This document shows, one piece after another, positions 16,521 to 17,267 of a stretch of 64,000 nucleotides of DNA. The notes below the pieces were generated by a model, which saw nothing but the letters and a program-made list of their open reading frames with translations, had not been told where the DNA came from and did not search any database. This stretch comes from Shigella phage sb2: sequence record PQ666540. The stretch is one strand, 5' to 3'. Position 1 is the first letter of the stretch, and every line of letters starts with the position of its first letter. The translations under genes were made by a program, and so were the position numbers.

Positions 16521-17267
16521 TTATCCTCGGATAAGTTTAAAAATTGAACAATTTAGCGGGTATCCTCTTTTCAGTTTAAGTTTATCAATAAAAGACAAGT
16601 TTTGATACCGCTCTACACCTTGAATAATTTTATCACACATATCATATTGCATTTCTGCTTCTGACAACTTTTTCACAGTTTTCCAATCAGAGCCTTTAAG
16701 AAGAACGTTCAATTTAACAACTTCAGCGCCTTCTGCTATACGAGAACCATCAATACGAGCTTTGAGTGCTATAATCGTTAGCTTAATGTCAGAGGTTTGT
16801 TTTGATTTAGAAAGCTGAGAAATGTGTTCAATTCGGTTTTCACGTTTTTTCTGTATAGCTTTAATTTGATTATAAGTCTTTTTGATTTTAGCCCATTTCT
16901 TTTCATCTAAATTTAGTTTATGAACTTTTTTCGCAGATGAACGACCAATTCGCAAAGCAAATAAATCACGCTTTTCAATCAACTCTTCTAAAGTATAATC
17001 AGAACGAAATGTATTATACTTTTTCTTTACTGCAATAACATTCCCTTTAATGTATCCAACGTTATTATCAAAACGTTCTAATGATAATTTCTCTCCTTCA
17101 ATGCGATTATCAAAAGGTTCTCCCGAGTAAGCGCAAACTTTCTGATCTAAAATGTTCTTAATGTAATTGAAGTCTAAGTTAAAATCTTTAGAACGTCTTT
17201 TGGCAGATGCCTGAGTATGCTCTAGACGACGTTTAATTTTACGAATTTGATTATTAGTCAGTTTCAT
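16521..17267 (-). CDS. basic protein at srd position with degenerate HNH-like motif
   Basis: 248 aa; segment CAYSGEPF...SLERFDNNVGYIKGNV resembles HNH core lacking second Cys pair. Confidence 0.45.
   Translation of the reverse strand: MKLTNNQIRKIKRRLEHTQASAKRRSKDFNLDFNYIKNILDQKVCAYSGEPFDNRIEGEKLSLERFDNNVGYIKGNVIAVKKKYNTFRSDYTLEELIEKRDLFALRIGRSSAKKVHKLNLDEKKWAKIKKTYNQIKAIQKKRENRIEHISQLSKSKQTSDIKLTIIALKARIDGSRIAEGAEVVKLNVLLKGSDWKTVKKLSEAEMQYDMCDKIIQGVERYQNLSFIDKLKLKRGYPLNCSIFKLIRG

Follow-up and report, generated by a model that had tools for sequence, protein, structure and literature searches.

The Srd protein of Shigella phage sb2, a close relative of T4, carries a zinc-less PacI-type His-Me finger domain

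Introduction

The Srd protein of phage T4 speeds the decay of host mRNA and is found in association with the catalytic N-terminal half of host RNase E (Qi et al. 2015, as summarised in the passages on Srd in PMC13232886, PMC7430671 and PMC4980113). Srd is thereby among the few proteins reported to bind this half of the enzyme. For RapZ, too, binding to the N-terminal domain of RNase E with a rise in cleavage has been proposed (PMC7430671); this unrelated protein is dedicated to a single sRNA, while the action of Srd on host mRNAs is broad. The passages of these three papers that treat Srd and RNase E describe neither a structure nor a mechanism for Srd.

PacI (PDB 3ldy/3m7k) belongs to group 20 of the His-Me finger classification, a group that is mostly viral and has no entry in Pfam, CDD or SCOP. 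In this group the catalytic His is absent and an omega-loop Tyr stands in its place; the classification paper makes no mention of Srd (PMC5714182). One Asp and one Asn hold the single metal ion of PacI, whose Tyr is positioned as general base (PMC4081073). In the searchable literature, no paper joins Srd with HNH and phage T4, and the papers retrieved for Srd together with PacI are not on the phage protein. The srd gene itself is already known; the assignment of a PacI-type domain to its product is new in the searchable literature. Here we describe this domain in Srd of Shigella phage sb2, its relatives, and the readings of its function that the comparison allows.

Results

Identity and locus of the gene

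The DNA analysed was a stretch of 64,000 nucleotides from Shigella phage sb2 (PQ666540), referred to below as the window. An initial annotation, made from the sequence alone, had drawn attention to a 248-aa basic protein with a degenerate HNH-like motif at the srd position. The size and charge of the protein were as described (pI 9.95; 56 K+R versus 30 D+E by composition). The ORF matched phrog_1400 'Srd anti-sigma factor' over aa 4-248 (PHROG profiles, E 5.7e-108). Alignment with T4 Srd, which the annotation had proposed, gave 98.8% amino acid identity by tblastn (Escherichia phage T4 srd, MT984581.1 11028-11771). With full-length similarity and a place between dda/dda.1 and modA/modB, in the same order as in T4, the ORF is T4 Srd, the same gene in a close T4 relative. 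The two share genomic position and neighbours and show no difference of substance. Coordinates are collected in Table 1.

Table 1. Coordinates of srd, its neighbours and the features of its product in the window.
Feature	Residues	Position	Strand	Description
dda		14892-16211		neighbouring gene
dda.1		16208-16519		neighbouring gene
srd CDS	1-248	16521-17267	(-)	248 aa plus stop codon; T4 Srd orthologue
N-terminal domain	1-110	16938-17267	(-)	zinc-less PacI-type His-Me finger
CAYSGEPF	45-52	17112-17135	(-)	remnant of first zinc knuckle; C45 kept, position 48 Ser
SLERFDNNVGYIKGNV	62-77	17037-17084	(-)	motif string quoted in the initial annotation
Beta-beta-alpha core, LSLERFDNNVGYIKGNVIAVKKKYNTFR	61-88	17004-17087	(-)	predicted secondary structure and PacI alignment
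E64	64	17076-17078	(-)	core residue; equivalent of PacI D92
R65	65	17073-17075	(-)	core residue; equivalent of PacI R93
Y72	72	17052-17054	(-)	core residue; equivalent of PacI Y100
N76	76	17040-17042	(-)	core residue; equivalent of PacI N104
N85	85	17013-17015	(-)	core residue; equivalent of PacI N113
C-terminal helical region	120-248	16524-16910	(-)	Srd-specific; predicted structure, coiled-coil-type matches
C-terminal tail	234-248	16524-16568	(-)	low-confidence part of the model
Promoter-like site	5' of srd	17298-17326	(-)	TTTACA, 17-nt spacer, TGtTATAGT; resembles T4 early promoter
Extended -10-like element		17358-17366	(+)	TGgTATAAT; srd-modA intergenic
modA/modB		17384-18606		neighbouring genes
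Endonuclease VII (gp49)		46827-47300	(-)	T4-type; used as comparison

The srd stop codon (16523-16521) is followed 1 nt further on by the dda.1 start codon (16519-16517), and this close spacing suggests co-transcription. Both dda.1 and srd are among the most abundant NAD-capped T4 RNAs (preprint 10.1101/2024.04.04.588121). The promoter-like site 5' of srd came from a consensus scan and is a pattern match only, with 10 of 12 consensus matches and a TG extension; the number of promoter-like sites in the srd region equals the shuffled expectation. The plus-strand TGgTATAAT element is antisense to all local genes, lacks a good -35 hexamer and is probably a chance occurrence.

Membership in a large domain family

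Three PHROG families annotated as nucleases matched aa 10-98 of Srd: phrog_3322 'endonuclease' (E 8.5e-19), phrog_3118 'HNH endonuclease' (E 3.9e-17) and phrog_1035 'endonuclease VII' (E 1.7e-7). Kinship with endonuclease VII, as the last label implies, was considered and rejected: there was no direct similarity to T4-type gp49, and the label appears loose. When aa 1-110 were compared exhaustively by phmmer against 1.84 billion cluster representatives, at least 2,222 similar clusters came up (E<=1e-3), many of them bearing the domain two to four times in tandem. The exhaustive search was needed, as a word-indexed search with the truncated domain recovered four fragments only. The resemblance to HNH nucleases is therefore genuine, with a 'DR' alternative that marks the PacI-type clade.

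Profile searching, the check suggested by the initial annotation, gave a divided result. Pfam and NCBIfam profiles found nothing significant in Srd, which had no match in the Pfam HNH clan, and the single Srd sequence had no significant match among PDB sequences. None of 90 relatives of the Srd domain matched a Pfam HNH family either, which indicates a large family without a Pfam model; the PacI fragment aa 32-119 itself scored only E 0.0054 against Pfam HNH, short of the cut-off. The absence of a Pfam HNH match thus stood, and Pfam holds no model for this clade. In a six-frame translation of the 64-kb window, the family profile found the domain once, at srd. PADLOC found no defence-system match.

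Searches of a viral structure library found the Srd N-terminal fold in many proteins of phages, cyanophages, Pandoravirus, Pithovirus, Klosneuvirus and Medusavirus, a spread over phages and giant viruses that agrees with the viral bias of group 20. One single-copy relative of 162 aa (P0287) carries the source name of the dinoflagellate Prorocentrum cordatum; with this origin the family extends to eukaryotes or their viruses. The zinc-less domain is repeated two to four times in the tandem proteins P0038 (852 aa, four copies), P0060, P0115 and P0124, and long tandem proteins show the repeat pattern 'RMSLER.DN..GY...NCVLIA.EFN(S/T).D'.

Genomic contexts of three metagenomic relatives were phage-like, with hypothetical genes, and said nothing on function. 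In Klebsiella phage SBP (OP114730.1 1132-2455) a family member adjoins a cytosine methyltransferase gene with an 11-nt overlap, and in Lactococcus phage PhiM1127 (289-2298) a member lies between two methyltransferase genes and also between terminase subunit genes. Such methyltransferase adjacency is restriction-modification-like and gives a hint that these relatives, at least, are true nucleases.

Two annotated anti-sigma factors showed unusual architectures. The srd homologue of Acinetobacter phage AB-Navy4 (OL770259.1 2450-3404) is annotated in two neighbouring 'antisigma factor' CDSs (52 and 262 aa), a split that looks like a frameshift or sequencing error within the N-terminal domain. Escherichia phage Av-05 (KM190144.1 2986-3783) encodes a 265-aa 'anti-sigma factor' with one intact domain copy; its C-terminal half seems by eye to be a second copy, degenerate and without the Arg, the Tyr and the helix Asn ('ILIMDLDLGFAKDNFIIVSEKME'). 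This second copy would be an instance of genuine decay in the family.

PacI as the nearest solved relative

Four independent lines of evidence, including a profile search of PDB sequences, hhalign and shared PHROGs, converge and point to PacI as the nearest solved relative of the Srd N-terminal domain. We used an alignment of 38 diverse domains as the family profile. Against PDB sequences, PacI (3ldy) was the top match of this profile at E 0.094, which is not significant alone; the same holds for the Foldseek E-value of 0.39. When the family profile was aligned directly with the PacI segment aa 32-119, hhalign gave E 2.3e-5 and a probability of 76%. The control, the T4-type endonuclease VII of the window, reached an hhalign probability of 0.2%. 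The same PacI segment matched the PHROGs of Srd (phrog_1035, 2.5e-6; phrog_3322, 6.8e-4; phrog_3118, 1.8e-3). Two bridging proteins, Xanthomonas phage phiXaf18 gp05 and Lactococcus phage PhiM1127 gp03, carry the full C..C / DR / GY / N / C..CN..K pattern and aligned with Srd column for column.

Sequence identity between Srd and PacI is 16%. Besides the core residues in Table 1, hhalign paired Srd C45, S48, D67, G71, K81, Y84 and R88 with PacI C63, C66, D95, G99, C109, C112 and K116, respectively. Putative catalytic roles were mapped onto PacI residue numbers from the alignments and two reviews; Y100 is presumably the catalytic Tyr, being the sole Tyr of that loop. On this mapping Srd appears to keep a counterpart for every residue of the PacI active-site set (E64, R65, Y72, N76 and N85). 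In the alignment, the metal-holding pair D92/N113 of PacI falls on E64/N85, with Glu in Srd rather than Asp. From the alignment, E64, Y72 and N85 would be expected to cluster in space.

Domain layout and loss of the zinc sites

Structure was examined in an MSA-based AlphaFold prediction, which superseded an all-helical single-sequence model (pLDDT 53). The N-terminal domain is predicted to comprise two leading helices, the beta-beta-alpha core and a trailing helix. Of the features of a His-Me finger, the predicted core, the Asn before strand 2 (N76) and the Asn at the helix metal-ligand position (N85) are present, and the canonical His column at the end of the first strand is occupied by Arg65. 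The PacI-clade helical subdomain N-terminal to the core is also present in the prediction.

The two Cys4 structural zinc sites of the clade are absent. The initial annotation had quoted the strings CAYSGEPF and that of aa 62-77, both exactly, and had observed that the second Cys pair is missing. K81 and Y84 indeed occupy these positions, and the first pair is also half gone: position 48 is Cys in PacI and in zinc-bearing phage relatives and Ser in Srd, so that S48, K81 and Y84 replace three ligands. The N-terminal domain contains one Cys (C45) and one His (H17) in total, which makes a Cys4 zinc site impossible. The missing His is the hallmark of a working enzyme class and accounts for the 'degenerate' look of the motif; the real loss in Srd is that of structural zinc. 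Because Srd has the fold, the Tyr and the Asn residues and lacks the zinc sites and the canonical His, we class it as a zinc-less variant of the PacI clade and not as a plain member.

The comparison with individual relatives supports the same placement. PacI and Srd share a fold of ~98 residues, including the helices before the core, 'D/E-R' in place of 'D-H', the GY tyrosine of the omega-loop, the structural and helix Asn residues and the first-knuckle Cys. Both the PacI group and the Srd family are mostly viral, giant viruses included, and have no Pfam model. Unlike PacI, Srd has Glu for the Asp that PacI and half of the family have, bears an extra helical C-terminal module of 130 residues and is not known to cut DNA. 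PhiM1127 gp03 and phiXaf18 gp05, members of phrog_3118, 3322 and 1035 annotated as 'HNH endonuclease', have the same domain as Srd, with the 'AK.RG..F.L' helix ahead of it and matching DR, GY, N and N positions, but they keep both CxxC pairs, are either short proteins or bear zinc-ribbon-like N-termini, and lie beside methyltransferase, terminase or head genes. Members from Klebsiella phage SBP and Pseudomonas phage PHB09 are zinc-less as is Srd, but have no C-terminal module. T4 endonuclease VII belongs to the same superfamily; in contrast to Srd it has DHDH and CxxC pairs, and profile similarity between the two was not detectable.

The C-terminal region is predicted to form a long antiparallel helical hairpin (122-154, 159-191) followed by shorter helices and a tail with the pattern ...KLK.G.PL.... 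This region had nothing beyond coiled-coil-type matches, and relatives outside Srd do not have it. Within the tail (aa 234-248, and aa 220-237), R220, G235 and P237 are invariant across orthologues. One possibility is that this conserved tail is a short motif for docking, for instance onto RNase E.

Conservation and selection

Conservation was assessed in 352 domain copies. The conserved positions were C45 (98%), D/E64 (99%), R65 (96%, with K in 3%), G71 (98%), Y72 (99%, the remainder His), N76 (100%) and N85 (99%). Cys was found at position 81 in 14% of copies, and at positions 48 and 84 in none of the 352. In the alignment of 38 diverse domains, C45, R65, Y72, N76 and N85 were invariant and G71 was near-invariant. 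The full C-[DE]-R-Y-N-N signature was present in 325 of the 352 copies, and those without it mostly carried R to K or Y to H exchanges or were truncated. Four copies had His for the omega-loop Tyr (P0100, both copies; P0169; P0289), a histidine at a non-canonical position. Tyr/His and R/K exchanges are what catalytic positions would be expected to tolerate.

A set of 15 Srd orthologues, with identities as low as 31%, had 33 invariant columns, 29 of them within aa 1-96, and C45, S48, E64, R65, G71, Y72, N76, K81, Y84 and N85 were among the invariant residues. Mean pairwise identity reached 59% in aa 1-100 and 67% in the core, against 33% in aa 101-200; in the tail it was 56%. The N-terminal domain is the slowest-evolving part of Srd, and the middle region evolves fastest. 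Very strong purifying selection falls exactly on the positions of the PacI active site.

In tandem proteins the second copy can lack the active-site residues, as seen in copy 2 of P0054 and, by eye, in the C-terminal copy of Av-05, suggesting that the fold does not need them. We argue from this conservation pattern that a functional site has been maintained. The term 'decayed', used in the initial annotation, does not fit a domain that is the most constrained part of its protein.

Distribution of srd

A tblastn search located Srd in 1,255 phage records; in 1,079 of these the match extends over at least 80% of the Srd length. Identity exceeded 95% in Tequatrovirus, was ~68% and ~49% in other relatives and 42-44% in phages CC31 and CHI14, and fell to ~37% in Klebsiella T4-likes and ~32% in RB49 (Krischvirus). 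In collinear genomes that start at the same point, srd lies at ~10-12 kb. This spread and fixed position argue for vertical inheritance of an accessory gene. Such a gene, present in several T4-like genera, is not sporadic, and the 'mobile endonuclease' of the initial annotation could not be upheld.

Discussion

We consider it on balance probable that Srd is a two-module early protein that acts as an adaptor for RNase E, its PacI-type module engaging nucleic acid and metal, and perhaps cutting or nicking, and its helical module making protein contacts. The first module (aa 1-110) is a zinc-less PacI-type His-Me finger with 'ER'/'DR' for the catalytic His; in it, Y72 of the omega-loop aligns with the putative catalytic tyrosine of PacI, and E64 and the helix residue N85 align with the ligands of its single metal ion. 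At the least, this module would bind a metal ion together with RNA or DNA, and cleavage or nicking by it is possible. The second module (aa 120-248), with its helical hairpin and conserved tail, may dock on RNase E or oligomerise. As an adaptor, Srd would then bring substrate to RNase E or prepare it. The conserved site could also serve binding only, and without its zinc the domain might be disabled in ways invisible to the model. A DNA-binding fold put to regulatory use, the other option offered by the initial annotation, is likewise a possible reading.

It is possible, if rather unlikely, that the module is an exapted, catalytically dead His-Me finger, comparable to Smad MH1 and the ENPP nuclease-like domains. 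It would then be a protein- or nucleic-acid-binding scaffold for RNase E activation, with its residues kept for zinc-less folding. Loss of the zinc site and absence of the canonical His are in keeping with such a scaffold, as is the fact that the passages on Srd in PMC13232886, PMC7430671 and PMC4980113 give RNase E stimulation through association as its sole function. Inactive His-Me fingers also have precedents, but the known inactive groups have lost catalytic residues (PMC5714182), whereas in Srd and its relatives the full PacI set is 96-100% kept in at least 352 copies from very different proteins and hosts. The substitutions that are tolerated are chiefly Y to H and R to K, and the residues lost from the second copies of P0054 and Av-05 are apparently not needed for folding.

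The proposal that Srd itself is an active tyrosine-type His-Me nuclease, the first zinc-less PacI-clade member with a biological role, is a tentative one that we judge distinctly unlikely. Srd reportedly has no mRNA-destabilising effect in RNase E-defective cells, and Qi and colleagues are said to have found RppH still needed for one substrate. This dependence argues against a self-sufficient RNase and is the reason for the low standing of the fully catalytic reading. If Srd were such a nuclease, it would cut or nick host RNA, or unmodified host DNA, in a metal-dependent way and generate 5'-phosphate ends. These ends would feed the 5'-monophosphate sensor of RNase E, and part of the 'RNase E stimulation' would be Srd catalysis. 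The family, whose clusters number at least 2,200 and come from phages, giant viruses and dinoflagellates, would then be a large nuclease class that has gone unrecognised.

Two further explanations are very improbable. According to the first, srd is a decaying free-standing homing endonuclease gene between dda.1 and modA. T4-type genomes hold many mobile HNH and GIY-YIG genes, and some relatives of the domain occupy mobile-type sites, as between the PhiM1127 terminase subunit genes or two genes from a SegE-like gene. But full-length homologues of srd keep their place in collinear genomes, the gene has neither frameshifts nor stop codons, and purifying selection is strongest on the motif itself. 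A host-takeover function has been reported for Srd, and the family profile matches no other ORF in the window.

The second holds that Srd is an anti-sigma factor or sigma-70 decoy and that the motif is irrelevant, and we give it very little credence. It has behind it the legacy annotation on hundreds of records and three short BLASTP patches against E. coli RpoD, the best with 13/30 identities. All three are short, and they do not run collinearly (Srd 3-29, 89-118 and 227-236 against RpoD 353-379, 569-598 and 416-425), and the first two fall inside the PacI-like fold. The Srd orthologue profile aligned with RpoD at a probability of 0.2%, and sigma-70 Pfam regions gave no match even at E<=10. 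In these sequence comparisons the 'anti-sigma' label finds no homology support. That the likeness arose by chance in a lysine-rich protein has next to no probability: the motif pattern as written is loose and Pfam and NCBIfam were not significant, but PHROG matches of E 1e-17 to 1e-19, the 2,222 relatives, and structural and transitive links to PacI stand against it.

The domain assignment bears on both the protein and its family. A misleading 'anti-sigma factor' label, copied into hundreds of phage genomes, is corrected. The family is a large zinc-less branch of the PacI clade, without a Pfam model, that reaches across phages, giant viruses and eukaryotes, and it indicates that the PacI-type fold can dispense with zinc while keeping a tyrosine-type site. 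For Srd, a PacI-type fold with an apparently intact active-site set in the best-conserved half of the protein offers a testable mechanistic lead.
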